Assembly: GCA_977018835.1 (NCBI GenBank)
Contig: OZ361258.1
Location: 1,178,001 to 1,242,000, forward strand
DNA length: 64,000 nucleotides
Source: Minutocellus sp. GHC0000111
Taxonomy: Eukaryota
Direction of reading: 5' to 3'
Shown piece by piece: positions 1 to 47,319 of this stretch. The notes under the pieces were generated by a model that saw only the letters and a program-made list of their open reading frames with translations, was not told the origin of the DNA and did not search any database. The translations under genes were made by a program, and so were the position numbers. Each line of letters starts with the position of its first letter. Within the stretch, counting starts at the first letter, position 1.

Positions 1-2487
1 CGGGATGGACGACGGCGTTAGCAAAGTGTTGGAGGTTTGGTAAAGGCGAGAAAGCTGCCATGTTGGCCACGTGGTGGGTGCTACGACGAGATGATGGCCG
101 TGGGGGAGGGTTCCGATGTGGAATGTACCCTCGCTGACGGTATGATCGTCGTCGAGGTGGTTTGGCGGTCGATGGTTTGGACTTGCTTGTCGATTTTGCT
201 GGAGCTGGTAATGTTGGAGTGGTATCGATCGTTGGAGACTTGCGTTTACGTTGCCGACGGGAGGTGGGGGCATTGGAACTTTGATTGGATGTTACGACGG
301 TTGCATCGTCGTCATGATTATCATCATCGTCGCCGTTGGGCTCGTCTACTGCAGCCAAAGGATTGTAGTAGTTGGAAGAAACTGACGAGCGAGGTGGCGC
401 GTTGGATCGACGTGATCGACGGCTTTTAGTGGTGGCTGCATCACATGTGGAGGATTTTGCCACCCTCGGAGGTTGCTGGGGCTGAGGCAACGGAGCGTTG
501 GGGTTGGAGACAAGGTGACGGCCTACTTCAGTCTCGTTCATCTCTTCTACGTCGTCGTCCTCGTATTTGATTTTGTAGTACTTATGCTTCTTGTCAAATG
601 CAACGACTCTACCCTTGTAATTGCGATCTCCAAACACTTTGGCGACGATGGTACCGAGGCGGAATCGTTGGGAGTCGTCATCGTTCTCCAGCACCCTCGG
701 AGCTGCGGTTGTCTGCATCGTCTCATCAGAGGCGGAGGTGGCAGATTCTGCTGGGGTCGCGCTGTTGAAAATCTCGGAGAGCTTTTCTAAAGCTTGACGA
801 TGCTCGTCTCGAAGGGGAGCAAGGGGTGCCGCTGGATGTGGATTCTGTAGAGCGTGCAGGAGTTCATGAGCTGCGACTATTGCTGCATCGGCCGACGACG
901 TTTTGGGTACCGGAATCATTTGGGGAGCCAGACGAGTGTGTTACCAGTGCGTTCCGCCCGAGTTTCCTCAATCCAAACCTTGTAACACCGGTAGTGTTCC
1001 ATGGCTGGACCGACATAGTACCCATCAACGCCATGCGGGGACCAAGAGCCGCGTGCCGAGGGCATCTCGTGAAAGATGACCTTGCATCCGAGGGGGCCGA
1101 GAGGCGTGCGATTGAAATCAAAGCCGCCATTGAGTTGCTCGTACGCTGATAGTCGAGGGTTGACTCGGGATGCTCTCAGGAAATTGAGGGTCATTACCGC
1201 CTGCTCCAGCAATTTATCCCACAAGATGAGGGGAAAGTCGGGATCGGTACCACAGAGAATCGCAATGAAATGATTCTTAAAGGTTCGAATGGCTCGTTCG
1301 GCCGCATTTCGGCGGTGGGAGTGCGTTGGGGTCAATTGAAAATCTACATCCTTTTCTTCCATGAACTCCTTCAGCTCTCGACTCACTTCATTATCCAATC
1401 GTTGCAATTTTGGGCGAAATCCTCGCTTGGAGAGGTATTCGAAAATAGTTTGGTGCGCTCGGCGCATTTCCGTTCCCGATCGGCTTTTCATTGGTTCGGC
1501 CAAGATGCTGTTGGAGTCATAGTCATAGACGACCATTATGTACTGGTGGCCAGAAATAGACGATGCCAAGAAACGGCCGGGCTGATCTGAGAAGATCTGG
1601 CCCGTTATGTCATGACAATCAGCAAAGACATAGTTGGTGCGCTGTTGGTGTTGTGCCGGGTGGAGATCCTGCTCGGTTTCGTCCACCCCAGGGAGAGATT
1701 TTGGCGTAGCCATCGACCGTTTGGGCTTGGTCGACCTGATGTTCTTGCGCTGCTGGTCTAAGTGACCTTTAATCATCGGTATCGACTGTGGCATGTGCTT
1801 ACGTACAAGCTTTGATGTGAGGCCTGGCCAAGATCTATAAAATCCCGCATCGATTGCTTTGCACCAGGTAGATAGCTGAGGACTGCCAGCGCACCAATGT
1901 AAAAAGGCTACACGTTCCGGAACCGTCTCCTGGGCAATTGCGGCGTTGGCAGCATGTTGGATGACGTTGGGGCCGGGGAGCGGCGACATGATGGGCGAGC
2001 AATTAAGATCTACCATCCACAATTTCGTTGAGGGGTCTCGTTTACCTTGCAAAATGACGGTATTGTCCTTGGCGATGACTACCGAATCCTTATCGAAAGT
2101 GGCAATGCATCCATCGTCACACAGCTGCCCAATCGATAGGAGCGATGATGCCATATTATTGAAAATATAGGCCTTGCTAGCCGATGGGGAAACCCCAGGG
2201 AGGCGAAGCGTGGCCTCGTGGGTGTTCGTCATTGTGCTGTTATCCGGAAGGGTGACGCTGATAGGAATTGCTGTCTGTTGGACGTTGAAAATTGGGCCAT
2301 CGTACGATAGGTGTTGGGGCTTCTGGACAAAATGTCCCGTCGTTCCAGCATCTGCTGCGAGGACGATTGGCTCTTGAGTTGGAGGTTTGCTTTTTGACGT
2401 AAGAAAAGCTAACGAAGGCGGGGAGGAGGTGGATTCAGATGTGCTATCCTCTATTTTACACTGATTAATATCCACCGTCCCTCCCGC
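1..2487 (-). CDS. pol: Copia pol (protease, integrase, Tudor-like domain, linker to RT), with a 1-nt frameshift near 916
   Basis: ORF 916..2475 carries the PR and IN motifs. After AAA-TG-ATT at ~916 another frame reads IPVPKTSSADAAIVAAHELLHALQNP... and stays open to the window edge. Confidence 0.88.
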
Positions 2488-3758
2488 TCAGTTACGACGC
2501 GAGCTACCACCGCAAGGATTGCACTTGGTGGCGTTATCAACGTGGTTGGGCCCTTTGCAAGTGCATTCAAAGCTGGGGTGGTTGGACGAATAGCCGCACG
2601 TGTGACAATAATGGCCTCTGGGGAGGATCGACTGCAGTTCCCGCTTCTCCTGGCGGTTGAGGTTACGACCTTGGCCTGGGAAGTGGCCGGCGCCGTTCTG
2701 CTGGCCACCGCCGCGGTAGCCTCCACTGCCACCAGCATGGTTGCGTCCCTCACGCAGAACGCGGTTCTCGGCCTTGAGTGAAGCTATTTCTTGGCGAAGT
2801 TTGGCAATGGCATCATCCTTCTCGTTGCTCTTTTTGGCGAGGTTCGCCATCATGGCTTGGTTGGTCTTGAGGGCTTCGGTGGTGTCAGCCAAAAGGAGAT
2901 CGGCTCGAGAAAGAAATGGATCGTCCGAGGCCGATGAGGCCAAATTCGCGCCATGACATCCTGCCGCTTCGGTGGTGGTGTTGGCCATCTTCTTATCACA
3001 CCAATCGCGGAAGTCCGACTGCATGTTGGCCCACGTGCGTTCGGCCTCCGGTCTGTCGTCCCAATCCTCGCATGCCTTCTTTGCCAATGAGAACCTGCGC
3101 ACGGAGCGGCAGAACTTGGAGACCTTTTGCTTGTTGGTGAAGGGTTCGCCGGCCGTTTCAAACACCTTGAAGACTTTGTTGAACATGGCGATGTGGGTGT
3201 CGATGGGTCCCCCGTCGTGCTGCTTCTCTAATTCCTCCTTCTCAGTCTCGTTGAATTTCAAGTAGCGATCGGCAATGCTGTCGATGATTTGGCGGATGGT
3301 GACTGGCTGGAAACCGAGCATGTCATCTTCGAGATGATTGATGTAGACGGCGTCGATCGAGTCGAGGAGGAGATTCTTGAGCGCCGTGTTGACTTGCTCG
3401 CACAAGTTGCAGTGGCCCTTTTCGATGCAATGTCCCCGGATTGCACGATCGCGTTGGTCTAGATTGGCCACGGCGGGAGTGGTGGGGCTGGGGCCAGGAT
3501 TTGCCGGAGGCACATGTGGTCGGCCGTTACTTTTGGTGGTGTGTTCGGCATCGCTGACGACGAGGCCCAAATGGCCGAGGTTGTGGTCATTGCACCCTGC
3601 TGGAATGCTGGCCGCCGCTTGTTGAAGTTCCTTGAGAGCGCTTTGGCAACACGCTCGCGTTGGGGAGGTTGTCCTGGGTCATTCACACGTGTGATTAACT
3701 TGGTGGGGAGAATCGGCGCTGCGCCGAGAGGTTGGCCAAAAACTGCGTCGGGATTCAT
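2488..3758 (-). pseudogene. gag: Copia gag, degenerate (frameshift near 3640, apparent Y->C/H substitutions)
   Basis: ATG at 3758 (MNPDAVFG..) shifts frame into LKELQQAAASIPAG..LGHLGLVV. The C-terminus has a zinc-knuckle-like YCHTCG...HPSFEC....H..NAT..NPCGGS. Confidence 0.8.
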
Positions 3759-4042
3759 GCTGGTGTTTCAGTCAGCGAAGACAGGCAGCACGGCGGTGTT
3801 GCTGCGAGAGACGTGTGATCGACAGAAGGTTCGATCCAGAGAAGTGTGATCGATTGGATGGGTCGATCTGGTCAGGACTTTCGGGGAAGGGATTGGATCG
3901 TCGCTCCAACATTGTCGAAAGAAACGGTCGTTTTGGCCGATTGAAGATGTGTCGGTTTTTCTTGCGTGACGAGTGAGTTGAGAACCCAAGACAAACCGGT
4001 GTGAGGTGCGAACCGAAATGGGGCGAGCACGGGTGGAAAAGA

Positions 4043-4253
4043 TGTATCACGTAGGTCTGCTAAGAGGTCCTAAAGCTAAGCTAGATAGATATAGCTAGTA
4101 GAGGTTAATAGGACCTACGTAGATGAAAAATGGGCCATCGGAGATGTCGTTGGCCCATGGATCAACGGTCAGGAGAGGGCACTGAGTCAGTGGTCTGATC
4201 ACCGTACGTACCGTACGTATGTATACGTACGTACGTATCCCATGGTATCAACA
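4043..4253 (-). repeat. Putative 5' LTR (inner boundary uncertain)
   Basis: Minus strand begins TGTTGA at 4253. The segment is TA-rich (TACGTA/TAGCTA runs), and composition changes sharply near 4045. The partner LTR is not in the window. Confidence 0.55.
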
Positions 4254-4492
4254 AGGATGTGCAAGGGCAAGTCCACCATTATATTTGGTGTTGGAGACAC
4301 ATGCTTCGACGACGGCCCAGCAGAAAGAAGTACATAGAGCAAGTATGTAGATAAGCGATTGTAGATCCGAGCACTGCTCTATGTAATAAGCTATCACCAG
4401 AAACTGCAGCTTGGTCGTTGTGATCTTGCAATCTCCTGCTCGCTCGTTCGATAAAAAGACACCCGGAAGCAAGAAACCGTTGCAAGCTGTCT

Positions 4493-4566
4493 CTGTTCAT
4501 AGCCCTGGCCGACCACTAGGCCACTATCCGGATGATGGCCTAGTGGTCGGCCAGGGCTATGAACAG
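4493..4566. repeat. Perfect 31-bp inverted repeat (hairpin/palindrome) with 12-nt loop
   Basis: CTGTTCATAGCCCTGGCCGACCACTAGGCCA (4493-4523) is the exact reverse complement of 4536-4566. Confidence 0.97.
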
Positions 4567-26091: not shown

Positions 26092-26938
26092 CTATTGCTC
26101 CTCAAGCGAAGCCTTTAGAAATTCTACCATCTTATCCACATATGCGGCCTTGGTTGGAAATAAGTGTCCCTTGTCATGGACAACGAGTTCTCCGTTGCCT
26201 CCTCTCCGGCACAATGCATCTGTTGACTCCACTGAAATGATTGCATCTGTTTCACCGGCCAGATGCAGTTTTGGAATCGCCAATCCTGAACCTGTATCTT
26301 GTAAGTCTCCCGACTCTGCTACCCATTCCGATGCAGATTCAAATACCTCCTCGATATGAGGTGCCCCAGCGGTGAGCACTGCTCGAACCGGTACTGCCCC
26401 TGACGTGGCCAATGCCGTTACAACAGTACCACCCTGCGAAAAAAACCATCAATCCATCGAATGGCCCATGTTTCAAGGCATATTCGGAGACATATGTCAT
26501 TGCCTCTGCAAGCTTGAGATATCGATACTGCTCTGGGTTGTCCTCCAGAGGCTCTCTCAGGAACCAAGCCCTCGCCGTGTTGAACATTGGCGTTTCTGCA
26601 TCGGACCCTGCAGATGCACTTGGTGCAGTTGTTGACTGCGAAACCTCCTCCAAATCGATGGGCCCGTCCAAAAAAGTCAAGTCGAACGCCCTCTCCAGCT
26701 TCCGTCGTGCACCACCAATCTTTTTGGGGAAAGACTCGGCCGTCTGCGCCTTGCCGTGAAGACAGAGTATTCTGGGCTTTGTCATTGCTGAGAATGCCTC
26801 GACCGTGCTGCTCTTGAACACGAGCAAACAGACCAGCAATGGGAACAGAGTAGTCAAAGGAGCGGCAATTGTGTTCTTTGGTACCAAGCGCGATTTTAAG
26901 CCAGCGCCGAAGGTAGGAGGGGTGGAACGGCTACTCAT
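26092..26938 (-). CDS. FSH1/OVCA2-family serine hydrolase, frameshifted at a homopolymer near 26440
   Basis: PRILCLHG..Q, FLDGP, GPFDGLM(GFSQGG) nucleophile region, LHLAGETDAII and HDKGHLFP. Confidence 0.88.
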
Positions 26939-27079
26939 GGAAGACTGGAAGACTCATGCGAACGACAGTAGCGGTTGTGCGCGCAATGCGAGGCAGCAAA
27001 AGCCGGGCGACGGTCAGAACATTTATTTTCGCCGCGTCATTCGACATTCGACAACGCGCCACAACCACTCGCCTGACTA

Positions 27080-27127
27080 CGAGGTCCGGGACAGCAATTT
27101 CGGGGACCCGGTTTTTTGGGTCTTTGG
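27080..27127 (+). repeat. Left terminal inverted repeat
   Basis: TA|CGAGGTCCGGGACAGCAATTTCGGGGACCCGGTTTTTTGGGTCTTTGG. Confidence 0.9.
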
Positions 27128-27278
27128 ACTTTCCGACACGGCGGTTTGCGCGCACCTTGAAAAACACGCGGCAAAGCAAGCAAATCAAAACACATCCGTC
27201 AACAACGACCTCCAAGCAATTACCACAAATAGACTGGGCAACTTCTGCCGACTGGCGCTTCAAGAAGCTTCCATACTC

Positions 27279-28415
27279 ATGGATACTCCAAAGGGACACA
27301 TCTTCAGTCCACCGCGTCCACCGAAACGCGCCGAGGCGACTGCATTCAGCCCCTCGCGCCATGAGAAGGAAACTTCCAACGAAACGCCGGAACATCCGCG
27401 GTATCGAGAGAACAAGGACAACCATGACGAGGAGGACAACCAAGGGGTCCCACCGGCATCGTCAGACCTCACATCTCCTCGTGTGTTGAAATATCGACGC
27501 GAGTACAACGAAGAGGATGGCTTCGCCGCCGAACAAGCCCAAGCAAGGAAGTACTTGCATCATGACATATTGCGTGCCGACTTTCGCGGTACCGCTACCG
27601 TTTCATCTCATTCTGATGAAGATGATTCATTCTCAGAGACGAGCATAGCAACCGCCGACGCAAAGCCAAGCGGCGAGAGGAGAAAGCCCGTGAGCTCATT
27701 CGACCTTCCCTCCGCCACGCCCATGGTAACAAGTCCAATGTCAGTTCATACTCAGTATGCTCTTACCCCAAGCCGCTCATGCCCGTCGTTCAGCAACCTT
27801 CAATTGTCATCCCCTACCATCTTGGAGCCCTTGCCTCCAACCGAACCAACCGAACGACAGATTGAACGAGAGGTTGAGGAACATCGGAGGCTTGCGTGCT
27901 TTTTGACGTACGGAGAAGCACCACTACCACAAGATATAAAGAACTACAAGTCACCCACATGTAGTCTGAGGCCCGAACCAAGAAGAAAAGAGAAAGGGGT
28001 CTACCTCCCCTTCAAACAAGTTCCTGGTTGGGGTAGCGAGGTCGCGGTCACCACAGTGCTAGGCATGATCGAAGTCGATCGCCAAGTAAGAGAGGGTCGT
28101 GGTGCCTACCCGAAAGGGTGGAGAAGCAGAGAACTCGGATTGTATGATAACAAGACAATAGAATTCTCTATTGCATTATCTACTGACAAGATTGCATTAG
28201 ATGCATATAAGTTGGGATATGAGGATGGGAGTAAACAACCAACTGCTCACCCTGCCCTCACTGACAATAAACTTGCCGATGCATATGGTGTGAAGCGCGG
28301 AAAGATTCGTCAGTCCCTCCACGCTGTGTGGCTTTCTAATGATCATAAGAAGGCCAAGGAGGCAAAAAAGAATACCGGTAGAAATAGAAGAACAAAGAAG
28401 CCCACCGTGATATAA
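27279..28415 (+). CDS. Transposon-borne cargo ORF of unknown function, possible C-terminal HTH
   Basis: Uninterrupted 378-aa ORF from MDTPKGHIF inside the TIRs. TDNKLADAYGVKRGKIRQSL is HTH-like and is followed by a basic tail. Confidence 0.7.
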   Translation: MDTPKGHIFSPPRPPKRAEATAFSPSRHEKETSNETPEHPRYRENKDNHDEEDNQGVPPASSDLTSPRVLKYRREYNEEDGFAAEQAQARKYLHHDILRADFRGTATVSSHSDEDDSFSETSIATADAKPSGERRKPVSSFDLPSATPMVTSPMSVHTQYALTPSRSCPSFSNLQLSSPTILEPLPPTEPTERQIEREVEEHRRLACFLTYGEAPLPQDIKNYKSPTCSLRPEPRRKEKGVYLPFKQVPGWGSEVAVTTVLGMIEVDRQVREGRGAYPKGWRSRELGLYDNKTIEFSIALSTDKIALDAYKLGYEDGSKQPTAHPALTDNKLADAYGVKRGKIRQSLHAVWLSNDHKKAKEAKKNTGRNRRTKKPTVI

Positions 28416-28510
28416 ACAAACCAATGCTGCTGCATCTTACATGTAGATCTATAAATAATTTGTAGACGTGTAACATTTATTTAATACATGTGTAAAGACA
28501 TTAACACTAT

Positions 28511-31315
28511 CTATTTATTAGAAGGATGACGAGCTGAGGGCTCCATCCCCTTGGCCGTTTCGTTGAAGTCGATCCTAATTCCAGTGTGCAAGTTTTCGTC
28601 ACCCAACCTTCCAACAAACTCATTGCTACCACCGGCCTTAATCACCAGGCCCATTATCCTCCAGTACTGAATGAAGGCCGAAGCAATTTTGCAGTTAGGC
28701 ATGCTATCGTAAACGTCCTCGGCAGTGTCCCAGATCTGGTCGGTGGAAATGACGGAGGTGCCTACCATTTTTCGTGCCCATTCCGAGTGCCGCCGGCTCA
28801 TCGCGGGGAACACGCTCAAGTCAAGGACGTTGGCGTGAGGCATCTGCGGTGCCTGTGGCTGCCACGTCCAGCCTTGCTCAGCACAGAAGTTAGTAACAAA
28901 TTGCGTGAAGGTTCCGTCCTCGTGAGGCCCGGCCTGGTCGCCCTGGATAATAACATGGCAATCTTCGTATTGCTTGCCCGGACCGACAAGGTTGAGAATC
29001 GCTGGGAAAATAGTCTCCTTGAATACGAGGAGCAAAGAGCATTTCGGATCCTTTTTGGTGCCTTCGTTCGATCCAGTAACGCAACAATCAACAAGAAACG
29101 ACTCTCCTTTCCGGCGAAGAGGTTCCTTTCGTGTCCCATCGGGGTTGGTATTTGGGTACCGTGTTGAACCATCAGGCTGTGATGCTGCTTCGTACTGAGC
29201 TCGCTCCGCTATTTTAGGAGCTTGAGCTCGTACCAGTGGCAGTTTTACAACCTCGCACCCACTCTCAAGAGAACCGTCAAAGACAGCGGCAACAAATGCA
29301 ATGGCCATGACCTTGTTGATGTGGCTCCTGCGAAAGGCCGCGTAATCTCGCTTTTTCACGCCGATTTCCTCGCAAGCCTTCGCAAAAGCTCGGAGGACGA
29401 GACCCCAGAACCATTTCTCATCGTAATGCACGAGGAGAACTCGCTTCTTTCCATTCGGTAAATTGCCGTTCTCATCCCGAATGTTCCAGAAATTCCGCAC
29501 GAGCTGAGCAAAGGCCAGATGCTTAGCTTTTTGAGCCTCCGACAGGCGCGGTACCAGCCGCTCCTTGTAGAAAGTGAAGGTGTCGAATGACTTGAGCCAC
29601 CGCTCCCACAGCTGCTTGTCATCGTCGCTGATGGTGTCGTACTCGGCCAGGTACGTTTTGAGCAACTCATTGTCAGCCTCCTTCGATGCAGAATCATAGC
29701 AGTCTTCCTTTGCCTCTCTGCACTTATTGATTGCATACAGGCGCTTAGCAGCAAAGTACTGCTCAGCCGTCTTGTAATTGTCAATGGTAGACTTTGGCCG
29801 AACCGACGAATCCTTGGGAGCGGGGGTGACAAATGCAAGCTCGGCCTGATCTGCTGGCATGCCCCGGGCAATGGCATTCTTCCGAGACTCGTTCTGGATG
29901 TCTCGCAGCCCATTCTTACCCTTCCCCCACGCTCTGCAGAGCTCACGAATAGTGACCCTCCCATCCGACTGAAACTTCTGCGATGAACTGTTCCTACTTG
30001 AGTGCTGCGTCCCTCCGGTGCTCTTCAAATGCACTTCCAGAAGCAATCCCTGGGCAAAAAGCATGCTCTTGTCCTCGTCGTTCAATCCCTTCTTGCCTTT
30101 GGTTGCTCGATTCGCCTCCTTTCGAAGACATCCATCCTTCTTCCTGTGTCGCATGCCATGCAAAAGCTTTCCGACAAGAGTCTCCATCGGACTGCCATCG
30201 CTCTTTGCACGCTTGTTGGCACCGGCGCTGTCAACACCATCCATCCCCGCCTGAGCAGCTGCTGTCCGTTTGCGCCTGTCCTTGGCAATTGAATCGGTGT
30301 TGAGGCCGAGTGGGATCGGGGTGATGGCCTTGAGAGGCACATTCTCATGCATCATGCCACCAAAAGGCTTCTCATGCTGGACATCGCAAAGAGCACCTCC
30401 ACCGACACCTCGACTGACCACAACAAATCCCTTGCCCTCAGGCCGATTCATGTTGGGACTGAAGTCGGCAGACACAAGGACATGTTCCCCAGCACTGATG
30501 GCAGGTCGCATGTTGTCTTCCATTCTCATTGCTTTCTTGCGTTCGGGTGGTGCATCCGTCGGCATCCTGTGCGACCGAAGATGTTTTCACGCATTTGTGC
30601 CCTCTGCTCCAAATGACGCATCGCCTCCTTCATTTTGTTCCTTTTCTTCTCGGCATCGACCATGGCCTTTTCATCCTTCCGCTTTTCTCGTTTCAAGGCA
30701 TCCCTTAGCCCTTTCAAAGCCTCCTCTGCAGCTTTGTGTTGCGCTTCGGCCTCAACCAGCAGCACATCCAAATTCTCCTCGGTCGATCCACCAGAATTGG
30801 CGGTGCCGGCAGCAGAAACACCGACACTGGCAGGATTGCCAGATTCTTCACTGTTGCCGCTTCCATCCACCACCATGGACTCGGCGACGCCCCCAGCTTC
30901 GATGTTGTCATCACCAGGACGAGCAGCGATGCCTGCCAGCATTGTCCTCGACCGTCGGCTCAGGGCTGGCATCGGCGTCATTGGATGACGAATTGCGCCG
31001 AGCAATTTGAATTTGAGAAATCGGCACATCTTGTGCCGGATCAGGACCGGTCTGGCTCGGACAGCACAGCTCCTCCTCTCGGGCTTGCTCCACAATATCC
31101 TGCTGTTTCTGAAGTGAGAGGCCCGTCCATGCCCGGTTCGCTATGGTCTGGATCATCCCAGGAGACTTGCCACGAATCGTAGAGGCATCGATGGTGCCGC
31201 TCCGATGGACAAAACAATCAAAGCATGGGATGGAGCTGCCGGACCGACGGGAGCGGCGACATGCTGGCGCATCAGCTGCGGTGGCAGCAGTAGTAACAGC
31301 CATTTGCATTAACAT
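28511..31315 (-). pseudogene. Mariner-type transposase with a long, frameshifted and hypermutated N-terminal region
   Basis: Three overlapping ORFs (30911-31315, 30526-31095, 28511-30565). The last has an intact D..D38D triad. Confidence 0.85.
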
Positions 31316-31846
31316 GGTGTTGGATGCAGTATTTTGTGGCAGTAGAGCAACAGTTTGTATGTCGGGTGGGTTGGAAATGAGGAAGGTTTCATTGAGTGGC
31401 GGGCGCGCCGGGCGGGTGATGATTTTTTTGGCCCGCTCGATTTTGGCGCGGGGTCACCCGGACCGCATAAGATACGCCATTATGGGGACCATGGAGACCG
31501 ATATCGGAGCTCAAACCATATGGCTACTTGAATCAATGCATTTGGGAGGTGGTGGTGGGGTCGGGAGGTGGAGGAGGTGACCGGTTGTCATCGGAAAAAC
31601 TGGCAGAAGTCGGGAGGGGCGATGGATGGGGTGAGTCGGCCAGACAGACGCTGGCATGGGAAGATGAAATCGATATCTCCGAGTCGGTCCAAGGTCAAGG
31701 ACCAACCCGTTCTGGAGATACCACGCTTATCCCTTGCGTGAAGCGGATGCCGTCGGCACTGCCGTCACCGCCATCTTGAAGACAGGACGATAGCAAATAA
31801 ATGCTGCTTGCTGCGTGCGTTTGTGCTGATTTTTATGAGATTTTGC

Positions 31847-31893
31847 CCGAAGACCCGAAAACCGGGTCCCTGAAACTGCTGTCCGCGACCTCG
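31847..31893 (-). repeat. Right terminal inverted repeat
   Basis: Reverse complement reads CGAGGTCGCGGACAGCAGTTTCAGGGACCCGGTTTTCGGGTCTTCGG. Confidence 0.9.
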
Positions 31894-31916
31894 CACTTTC
31901 CCCAACATCGGTGACG

Positions 31917-44927: not shown

Positions 44928-46835
44928 TTACCCTACAGCGCGTTGAGTTAGATCCGTTTCGCCATTCCCATCTGTCACGTTAGATCCGCCCAACAAACCA
45001 AAGAGATTATTTCCCAATGGAAGCGATGGCATGGGCGGCAATTGCATCGGAACAAGAGAGCCCGTTGCCAACGAATTTAGCTGCCCAATACCAGGGACGA
45101 GATTTTGTTCTGTCATGGCCGGCGGATTAAGCTGCTGCGGCATTTGTACCTGAGCTGGTTGCTGTAGCTGCTGCATCATTACTTCATTTTGTGCTTGAAC
45201 TTGCGCTTGGAGCTGCATCTGTGGTTGGTATGGCTCACCACCTTTCTCTTGATGTTGTTGAGTAGGCTTGGACGACTCTCCCTTCTTTTGCTTCGCCAAG
45301 CGTAATCGGCGTGAAAGTTGATTCTTGCGCTGGGTCAATCGGACGCCATCTCCGGCATCGACCTCCTCGCCGGCATGGTCAAAGACCCCAAAGACGAACC
45401 CACCCTGTTCCAGGGCATCCTTGAGCTTCATCTTGGGGTTGGCCAATCGCAGTTCGACGGCCTTCTTCATTCTGTCGTCGGCGTAGGTCATTCTCTTGCC
45501 GGTGGGCTTTGTCGCTGTTGATGATGACGAGGATGAGGATGCCGACGTCCTGGAAGTGCCCGATGTGCCGGATGTGGCAGTACTGGCGGTGTTATTGGTC
45601 TCGACACTGTCGGGCGTGCTGTTGTGATCGGTGCGAATTCTCTTGACGTTGGGCATATTGGCGACGGCAAAGTTTCCTTGTGCATGTGCGATTGGCATGT
45701 CGTGCCCTACATGCGCCGGCGAGGCTGCAGCTGGCGCTGGTACCACCATGGGCCCTGCTGCCGGAGGAAAAGGAGCAGCAGCGGTGATGATGATCCCTCT
45801 CTCCTTCAAGCGACGCTCGACAAGAAAGGCATCCGTGTCAACCCGGAGGTCACCCCCGAGATCCGCCGGGACGCACCGCTTGGGCAACCGAAATCCATTC
45901 AGGATCATGATGATCTGCTCATCGGATCCGCGATGGATCTTGAACCGACGGCGGATGTGCTTCCCCACAAAGCTCTTGAGGACAGGAAACAACACATAAT
46001 ATCCAACCGCCGACGGATGGCACAGGTGGAGCGCCCGCAGATGGAACGGCACGCAGTTGCAGACGGACGTCAGCAGCCGCATCAGGTACAGGTTGTAGTG
46101 CCGCTTCTCCACTCCCTTGCCGTTGACGACGACGACGATGCCGCGCTTCCGCACCTCGGGATCCTCGAGGGCGGCCTCCATGATGTACATCTTGGCCATC
46201 GCCTCCTGTTCGGGAGAGACGACGTCAAAGTCACGCCTGCCGGGTTGGAGCATGACAATGGCCCGCCCGGCGGCATCCCGCGCGGGGAGGAGGCACACCA
46301 GTCCCCTGCGCAGGACCGACTCCTGTCCCCTCATGGCCCCATCGAGCGTCATGGGGAGGAAGGCGCGGTGGGCCCCGAAGCATTTGAGGCGGACCTCCCA
46401 GTAGTCGACGAATCTGGCGGCCGCCTCGACGGGGTTGTTGTCGTCACGGTCCAAAAATATCAGCCGCCGTTCCGGATCGTTGACCAGATGGGGACACTGC
46501 AGCTGCGCATGGAGGTAGGCCGCCTTGTTCTCTGGGGAAATGGCCTCGATGGCCTCCTCCAGCCGACGGAGCAGATGGGCGGCGTGGCCGGTGTCGTTCC
46601 GGAGGATGGAAATTCGATCGACGCCGGACGCGATGCCCCGCAGATCGCTCTCGAGTTTCACGACGTCTCGAATCGACAGGGCGGCCACCTCCTCCTTCTC
46701 GGCCTGTTCCGTGAAGGCAAAGTTGGCGTCGGTGTCGCGAAAGACGAGATGGGCCGGGCGGTGCTTGGATGTGTTGTTGGGAGCGGCAGCGGCAGCGGCG
46801 GCGGCGGTTTCCGGTGAGATGCTATCGCTCAGCAT
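44928..46835 (-). CDS. CRAL-TRIO (Sec14) domain protein with a basic C-terminal domain and Q-rich tail
   Basis: LIFLDRDDNNPVEAAARFVDYWEVR, RDAAGRAIV, PFHLRALHLCHP and LPKRCVPADLGG, followed by DDRMKKAVELRLANP..ALEQGGFVF..QRKNQLSRRLR. Confidence 0.88.
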   Translation of the reverse strand: MLSDSISPETAAAAAAAAPNNTSKHRPAHLVFRDTDANFAFTEQAEKEEVAALSIRDVVKLESDLRGIASGVDRISILRNDTGHAAHLLRRLEEAIEAISPENKAAYLHAQLQCPHLVNDPERRLIFLDRDDNNPVEAAARFVDYWEVRLKCFGAHRAFLPMTLDGAMRGQESVLRRGLVCLLPARDAAGRAIVMLQPGRRDFDVVSPEQEAMAKMYIMEAALEDPEVRKRGIVVVVNGKGVEKRHYNLYLMRLLTSVCNCVPFHLRALHLCHPSAVGYYVLFPVLKSFVGKHIRRRFKIHRGSDEQIIMILNGFRLPKRCVPADLGGDLRVDTDAFLVERRLKERGIIITAAAPFPPAAGPMVVPAPAAASPAHVGHDMPIAHAQGNFAVANMPNVKRIRTDHNSTPDSVETNNTASTATSGTSGTSRTSASSSSSSSTATKPTGKRMTYADDRMKKAVELRLANPKMKLKDALEQGGFVFGVFDHAGEEVDAGDGVRLTQRKNQLSRRLRLAKQKKGESSKPTQQHQEKGGEPYQPQMQLQAQVQAQNEVMMQQLQQPAQVQMPQQLNPPAMTEQNLVPGIGQLNSLATGSLVPMQLPPMPSLPLGNNLFGLLGGSNVTDGNGETDLTQRAVG

Positions 46836-47319
46836 GATTGGCTTGTCAGCTTAGACCAAGTACAGTCAGGAGGATAGAACGGATAGAATGGTCGCCGCGC
46901 GGCGGGGTATGGCGGGGTGGAATTACCTCTCTATCTGAGGTACATTTTGTGTGCATGGAATATGAGGGCCTATTTTGTGAGCATGGAATATGCGGGCCTG
47001 CTTTATTTGTGCCGATCGATTATTTGGGTTGTCTGACCCGTTTCGGCATGGATCATTTCGGCGAAGTCCAAAGTTGCTGCAAAGTGGCTTTTGAGTTTTC
47101 CTGTGTACGGGACTACATTTCAACATGACATGTACGCCGTGGAGCACGTACGTACCAAAATACCGAGAAATCGAATGAACCATGCCGCGTCGTCAGTGCC
47201 ATCCCATGCATCATGCGCTGGGAAAGCAAGCGGCGAAGGGGCAAGCGACAGCCAAGCATAAGAGCAAAGTACTGAGCCGTGCGGTCACGTGGCGTAACGC
47301 ATCGGCCATTAAAAGCAAC

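Follow-up and report, generated by a model that had tools for sequence, protein, structure and literature searches.

A both-strand TpA>TpG/CpA mutation signature, strongest toward the 5' end of the coding unit, in a copia-type retrotransposon and a Tc1/mariner-like transposon of the diatom Minutocellus sp.

RIP, the process that mutates repeats in ascomycete fungi, acts on C and makes TpA from CpA or TpG, being triggered by duplication during the sexual cycle; we know of no promoter gradient in RIP. AID somatic hypermutation, as described in the available text of PMC2212980, is motif-biased, starts about 100 nt after the promoter, spans 1-2 kb and spares the very 5' end; AID is a cytosine deaminase of vertebrate B cells that diversifies host genes, and its likeness to the present case is one of shape alone. 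More recently, de novo TpA>TpG/CpA mutation was measured in viral DNA integrated in the genome of Bigelowiella natans (Mettrop et al., bioRxiv 10.64898/2026.01.13.699255). The available text of this preprint gives an ongoing mutation at a roughly 1000-fold rate, an enrichment of DDE endonuclease and reverse transcriptase domains in TA-poor CDS, and ADAT2 as a proposed, unproven enzyme; it describes neither a flanking motif nor a 5' gradient and does not contain the words "diatom", "LTR" or "retrotransposon", though its supplement may show a motif. Our literature search, in which subscription papers were mostly beyond reach, returned, among the papers listed, this preprint alone for the signature, and nothing on diatoms.

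The locus described here resembles these systems in part. As in the NCLDV/virophage DNA of Bigelowiella, going by the main text of the preprint, A/T>G/C transitions are confined to TpA and give TpG or CpA by strand, and the target is foreign or mobile DNA, hit very unevenly across lines there and across copies here; Bigelowiella, however, is a rhizarian with viral regions of 25-186 kb, one of them silent, whereas here the host is a stramenopile and the targets are class I and class II transposons of 4-6 kb. With RIP, the present process shares dinucleotide-specific transitions on both strands of repeats, an uneven distribution across copies and a possible leak into the flank, but the direction is opposite. 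The basic TpA signature is already known from one preprint, and the present locus contributes the RTAY hierarchy, the 5' gradient in two unrelated families and a pol region that is not spared.

The window, which is the whole stretch of DNA analysed, covers 64,000 nt of Minutocellus sp. GHC0000111 (assembly GCA_977018835.1, contig OZ361258.1, 1,178,001-1,242,000 of the forward strand), and its positions 1-4253 are the 5' part of a diatom copia-type LTR retrotransposon lying on the minus strand (Table 1). We found the Ty1/copia (CoDi) layout, with a TG..CA LTR, gag, a protease-like motif and the integrase directly after it, the reverse transcriptase (RT) lying beyond the window. In the accessible text on the CoDi elements of diatoms (PMC2806351), the same TG/CA LTRs, the same order of gag followed by protease and integrase, and at most one stop separating gag from pol are described, as here; the present element is given no CoDi group because its RT is outside the window. 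The gag stop is a TGA at 2488-2490 with pol in the same frame beyond it, and stop read-through is possible. Its pol shares 48% identity with Phaeodactylum proteins, a gag relative at 53-58% identity is labelled Arcocellulus cornucervis, and the neighbouring host gene belongs to a mainly Bacillariophyta cluster. A depth of about 8000 over the element, vs. 100-300 in the flank (run X1), and a gag cluster with 71 members point to a multi-copy copia family. Pfam returned no retroelement domain for the window's gag and pol, and a PTM/DIR17-like Tudor domain (PF21743, E 7e-11) was found within copia pol, past the integrase (P0209, P0218). Over 4060-4205, the LTR shows no difference from the X1 majority contig. 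Runs X1 and X7 contain a joint between 4199 and 3586, suggesting that the 5' end of the element also exists as a rearranged or tandem copy.

Table 1. Positions, in window coordinates, of the two elements, their TA-depleted tracts and the adjoining sites.
Feature	Position	Strand	Remarks
5' LTR, TG...CA	4058..4253	(-)	loose ends at 4058 and 4253, with about doubled depth
Presumed primer-binding region (4045-4057) and 5' leader	3759..4057	(-)	
gag	2488..3758	(-)	frameshift from a 2-bp duplication at 3634; 4 codons missing near 3228
pol: protease-like motif, integrase, downstream domains	1..2487	(-)	1-bp deletion at 918; exits the window
TA-depleted tract of the copia element	2787..4044	n/a	7 TA, RTAY absent
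Two TA>CA differences in the flank	4298..4301	(+)	about 45 bp outside the LTR, vs. contigs apparently of the empty allele
Tc1/mariner-like DNA transposon	27080..31893	(-)	36-bp inverted ends, 27080-27115 and 31858-31893
Second TA-depleted tract, 5' transposase	29990..31140	n/a	3 TA, o/e 0.05
Presumed right target-site copy	31894..31895	(+)	CA (TG on the other strand), GTAC-type context; left end TA

The original prediction had counted about 7 TA dinucleotides by hand in some 1260 bp, with none in 3698-4044, and our recount gave exactly these figures for 2787-4044, where TA remains at 2994, 3229, 3263, 3344, 3460, 3528 and 3696. The observed/expected ratio (o/e) of TA in this tract is 0.11 vs. 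0.58 across the window, 35 TA would be expected at the background rate (Poisson P 8e-9), and only 0.5% of 1258-bp windows hold 7 TA or fewer; the sole comparable tract in the window lies inside the Tc1/mariner-like element. The neighbours are normal or rich in TA, as had also been claimed, with 25 TA on the LTR side at 4045-4253 (o/e 1.72) and 84 in pol (o/e 0.61). The absence of RTAY among the TA remaining in the tract compares with 35-36% of TA in 15 host ORFs. Six gag motifs had been proposed as former Tyr sites, four of which hold: at DAEH, HCNLCE (with two Tyr sites), DWCD and AAGCH, Tyr is present in 8-11 of 10-11 outgroup proteins, and the copies show a mixture of Y, C and H; at RPHVPP and DTHIAM, on the contrary, His is also present in relatives of 53-83% identity, so that the finding that would have spoken against the proposal, intact relatives with C or H at these positions, was made for two of the six motifs and not for the other four. 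The Met of DTHIAM is, however, itself an ATA>ATG loss.

The copies were compared through 33 gag and 34 pol protein pieces (67 in total) mapped onto the window, drawn from the cluster members listed (e.g., 15 of the 71 in the largest gag cluster), with these pieces and contig tables serving as the comparison set in place of a DNA alignment of copies. Synonymous losses are invisible in protein data, and lost TA sites are therefore undercounted. In copia, A>G change was found at 457 of 2429 TA observations (19%), each being one site in one copy, with copies not fully independent (P0335, P0341 and P0346 share patterns), and with ancestral states inferred from the same data and gag and pol pieces forming unmatched subsets. 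The same change was found at 19/4305 AA, 6/5259 CA and 10/5735 GA sites (0.1-0.4%), so that TA exceeds AA about 40-fold and CA and GA more than 100-fold. Transversions at TA are nearly absent (A>T 3/1856, A>C 0/2180), CpG transitions reach 14/4530 and G>A at TG 5/3234. Thus the changes are almost solely A>G / T>C transitions (other classes 0.0-0.4%) confined to TpA on both strands, as in Bigelowiella, and they do not show the C>T change at CpA/TpG yielding TpA that defines fungal RIP, TA being lost here. Nearly every Tyr codon reads as Y, C or H depending on the copy, while outgroups (53-83% identity) keep Y, and Ile>Met/Thr, Thr>Ala and Asn>Asp changes obey the same TA rule. At the nucleotide level, the window differs from the contigs of four runs at 123 positions; among the 40 listed, 31 fall inside the element, and 23 of these oppose TA to TG or CA. 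We therefore consider it confirmed that copia copies carry TpA>TpG/CpA changes on both strands.

The letters around the TA set a clear hierarchy when the motif is read on the strand carrying the mutated A. The rates in copia (sense/antisense) are 0.35/0.31 for RTAY, 0.20/0.10 for YTAY, 0.08/0.035 for RTAR and 0.02/0 for YTAR, and those of the transposase (59 pieces) are, in the same order, 0.21/0.22, 0.07/0.02, 0.03/0.01 and 0/0. A check of strand symmetry had been proposed, given that RNA editing would be sense-only, and the result is symmetric: copia Tyr codons following a purine have become Cys 93 times and His 97 times (P 0.83), in agreement with the near-equal RTAY rates, and a single codon has become C in some copies and H in others. 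Adjacent mutated Tyr codons do not significantly share the strand, either in copia (62/109, shuffle 0.49, P 0.05) or in the transposon (25/51, P 0.54), and hence there is no sign of long single-stranded patches mutated in one pass; this fits many separate hits. Since TA is palindromic, the data are compatible with either A or T as the damaged base.

With regard to position, the signature had been placed at the 5' end of the transcription unit, and in both copia and the transposase it is indeed heaviest where the coding unit begins. In copia, the motif-adjusted o/e of changes from 5' gag to the window end is 1.43, 1.17, 1.23, 0.97, 0.72, 0.57 and 0.60, and with sites as units the gradient gives rho 0.38 (P 4e-4, 84 targets) and, for 16 Tyr, rho 0.59 (P 0.017). 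The window copy is steeper in its 5' decay than its family, having lost 17 of 24 visible TA in 5' gag, where all 12 RTAY are gone (5 to CA, 7 to TG), and 10 of 28 RTAY in pol. A sharp tract of 1-1.3 kb, as first described, did not hold, and a discrete tract in every copy is rejected, because the family shows a gradient and some copies are heavily mutated throughout pol, such as P0204 with 31 of 54 sites mutated evenly along it. The further claim that LTR and pol are spared is right for the LTR, which at 4058-4253 largely escaped and retains 23 TA, 11 of them RTAY; it is wrong for pol, where other copies lose TA at about half the rate of 5' gag and where 8 of 13 window-specific TA losses among the listed differences fall. 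TA>TG/CA changes do occur in other LTR copies at 4086-4120, where they account for little of the depth, and a few LTR copies have changed strongly, with 8-10 differences within 75-110 bp. At 4200-4250, its outer end, the LTR consists of successive TACG/GTAC/ATAC units, which represent the hottest motif and have nevertheless stayed intact in the window copy. The burden per copy is very uneven, from 0/29 to 31/54 (chi2 268, df 65). The leader at 3771-4044 holds no TA vs. about 9 expected at background, and the majority contigs differ from the window in 3698-4044 only at 3904 and 3910, with one TA restored (3910); the TA-free leader is mostly an inherited family trait, its TA having perhaps been purged in earlier rounds. 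A gradient such as AID-like deamination might leave is seen in both families; the 3' half of copia lies outside the window, so that for copia the distance from the element end is not separable from the distance from the promoter.

In parallel, the Tc1/mariner-like transposon (Table 1) gave the same picture in a class II element. Its transposase, from about 31300 to 28511, is broken by frameshifts and a 46-codon deletion, and the inverted ends, together with PF01498 found on members of the family, suggest a Tc1/mariner-like element, whose flanks read TA on the left and CA on the right. A>G change was found at 262/2429 TA vs. 17/6036 AA, and the motif-adjusted o/e falls from 5' to 3' as 2.42, 1.89, 1.08, 0.76 and 0.35 (rho 0.74, P 0.006, 12 Tyr as units). 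The original prediction of one two-strand signature in class I and class II elements thus stands, with the same motif order and the same 5'-to-3' decay in both. The Tc1/mariner superfamily usually duplicates a TA target, and the CA on the right flank is presumably a mutated target-site TA, a reading of one site that assumes this duplication. A second Tc1/mariner-like family of 146 members in the same assembly (P0260, P0374-P0387) includes P0382, with many Tyr>Cys/His changes, while most of its siblings are nearly clean; the mutated elements are therefore two families and, in part, a third. In the left half of the transposon, the long ORF 26760-28415 (+) had no Pfam or Atlas match and may be cargo or an accessory gene. 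Residues 1-41 of P0306, a member of the transposon family, align at 98% identity with 31355-31477 read on the opposite strand, so that one of these two copies carries a local inversion.

Inosine pairs with C, and pure A>G change at TA fits this pairing. Together with the preference for a 3' pyrimidine and the apparent start after the promoter with subsequent decay, it leads us to propose a host DNA adenine deaminase. In its joint form, this reading has a putative host deaminase working after insertion, probably on DNA opened by transcription, and producing both the RTAY changes and the 5' decay, and we judge it evenly poised between right and wrong. In such a sequence of events, the element would insert, transcription from its own promoter would open the DNA and give the putative deaminase access, adenine at TA would become inosine and be fixed as G at replication, and many separate episodes would add up and finally destroy the codons for Tyr, Ile and Thr and the motifs close to the promoter, while repair of the lesions would leave short duplications. 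Taking its parts separately, we lean slightly towards A-to-inosine deamination by a putative TadA/ADAT-like enzyme fixed as G at replication; that transcription coupling explains both the gradient and the sparing of the upstream LTR could equally well be true or false. The TadA-derived adenine base editors, as far as the available text of PMC10188366 goes, also make A>G changes on DNA with a pyrimidine 3' of the A, and they prefer pyrimidines on both sides; these engineered enzymes, however, accept CA (YAY) besides TA, and CA is cold here (0.1-0.3%), which counts against a TadA-like deaminase. The flank TA>CA pair, the heavily changed LTR copies, the evenness of P0204 and the lack of strand-coordinated runs also count against the deaminase reading as a whole. 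Contigs from RNA runs cover the element and say nothing on start site or expression. A defence function of the mutator may be inferred. The broader proposal that diatoms hold a natural AID-like adenine editor, a putative deaminase loaded at active transposon promoters, whose both-strand action on RTAY would fade over 2-3 kb and destroy the elements under transcription, as a defence shared with Rhizaria, seems doubtful to us.

The best surviving rival keeps the same mutator and has it aimed by silent chromatin or small RNAs nucleating near the promoter, the gradient being the spreading of the mark; we find it rather unlikely, though it is served by the all-or-little burden per copy (P0382 vs. 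its nearly clean siblings), by the possible spill into the flank and target site and by the lack of strand-coordinated runs. LTRs are the usual focus of silencing marks, and the upstream LTR nevertheless keeps its 11 RTAY in the window copy, with LTR variant shares of mostly 1-3% vs. 19-47% at internal sites (run X1, contig depth being a crude measure). The NCLDV target in Bigelowiella, on the other side, is transcriptionally silent according to the main text of the preprint (bioRxiv 10.64898/2026.01.13.699255), which argues against a need for transcription and in favour of such aiming.

Less probable still, and in our opinion unlikely, is that the damaged base is thymine, with a TET/JBP-type enzyme marking T in RTA inside transposons (5hmU, then 5fU) and mispairing with G fixing T>C, a change that the palindrome makes equal to A>G in TAY. 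5hmU pairs with A and is only weakly mutagenic, which counts against this explanation, and TC (GA on the other strand) is cold (copia 10/5735; 6/6965). In dinoflagellates, a TET/JBP enzyme does produce 5hmU that is connected with the silencing of transposons, and a preference for TA and TC was reported early on (PMC11572971, whose available text does not mention "diatom"); base-resolution mapping in Breviolum, in the accessible text of PMC11071213, found no sequence preference.

We give little credence to a pol eta-like error-prone polymerase that would fill repair gaps, misinsert G opposite T and slip to leave short duplications. Such slippage would suit the private 2-5 bp tandem duplications in the leader at 3806, 3974 and 3999, which with that at 3634 make four in 3634-3999 (other copies have short duplications at 3760, 3776 and 3784, none sited at TA), and also the single-codon insertions, which are more frequent per codon in the 5' zone of copia (7 in 7770 codons vs. 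2 in 11915, P 0.03) and of the transposon (6 in 5910 vs. 3 in 16434, P 0.01), although N-terminal regions are richer in short repeats, which may alone explain the insertions. AA is indeed the second most mutable A context in copia (0.0044), but errors of pol eta fall on TA a few times as often as on AA and include many transversions, and here the TA:AA ratio is about 40:1, with neither A>T nor A>C in excess at TA.

That the mutation strikes genomic DNA after insertion is, in our judgement, very probable, given that one copy can hold changes of both directions, that the burden varies widely from copy to copy, that the same codon reads C in some copies and H in others, that a class II element is affected and that a presumed target site reads TG. 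The rival, RNA or cDNA editing during the element's life cycle and fixed by reverse transcription, is very improbable: copia is a retroelement and its single-path sites lean to sense A>G (YTAY 0.20 vs. 0.10), but RTAY is equal on the two strands, both directions coexist within one copy, and a DNA transposon with the same motif and a changed, presumed target-site copy outside the element are hard to reconcile with it. The ADAR/APOBEC-type marks, a one-strand bias per copy and restriction to retroelements, were looked for and are not seen. The two TA>CA differences in the flank are so few that normal variation between alleles may explain them.

Chance, composition or assembly error, which the low genome-wide TA (0.58, falling to 0.22 in one 600-nt stretch of a GC-rich gene) and a leader that is TA-poor throughout the copia family might suggest, has next to no probability given the P of 8e-9, variants recurring in independent runs and dozens of copies, and L001, a 77%-identical relative with a TA o/e of 0.65 upstream of pol, and is refuted for gag, an old family trait staying possible for the leader alone.

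Host genes and relatives elsewhere were also considered. Among the 15 host ORFs of the window, no 5' dip of TA was found (o/e 0.61 in the first 600 nt, 0.55 beyond), and by composition in this one window mobile DNA is targeted and host genes are spared, as in Bigelowiella. The CRAL/TRIO gene at 44928-46850 (-), with an o/e of 0.22 in its GC-rich 5' 600 nt, is the only host stretch nearing the tracts, and its low TA is probably a matter of composition. Scanning JGI metagenomes with gag gave 324 pattern matches, none of which was a relative; a pol-based scan gave 80 loci (the best 80 of 203), and in close pairs among them, TA-class differences are typically about one in ten (25/328 in L002/L005, 17/231 in L011/L062), CpG-class differences usually being commoner. 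The top share among the pairs compared is that of L067/L073, 14/37, which may mark another diatom having the process. Most related copias elsewhere are without the signature, and the process looks lineage-restricted, although collapsed contigs can hide it.

A transposon-targeted mutator that works in the reverse direction of RIP would add an arm to genome defence in a major group of ocean producers and would distort transposon dating and GC content in such genomes. For base editing, a DNA adenine deaminase that occurs naturally and has a defined motif would be of interest. The RTAY motif and the 5' decay are two concrete fingerprints for comparison with the Bigelowiella mutations and with candidate deaminases.

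Beyond the LTR of copia, a hairpin with 37-bp arms at 4493-4566 (region 4481-4566) is replaced by 22 other letters in contigs of X1 and X2, and this region is a polymorphic foldback or MITE-like insertion.
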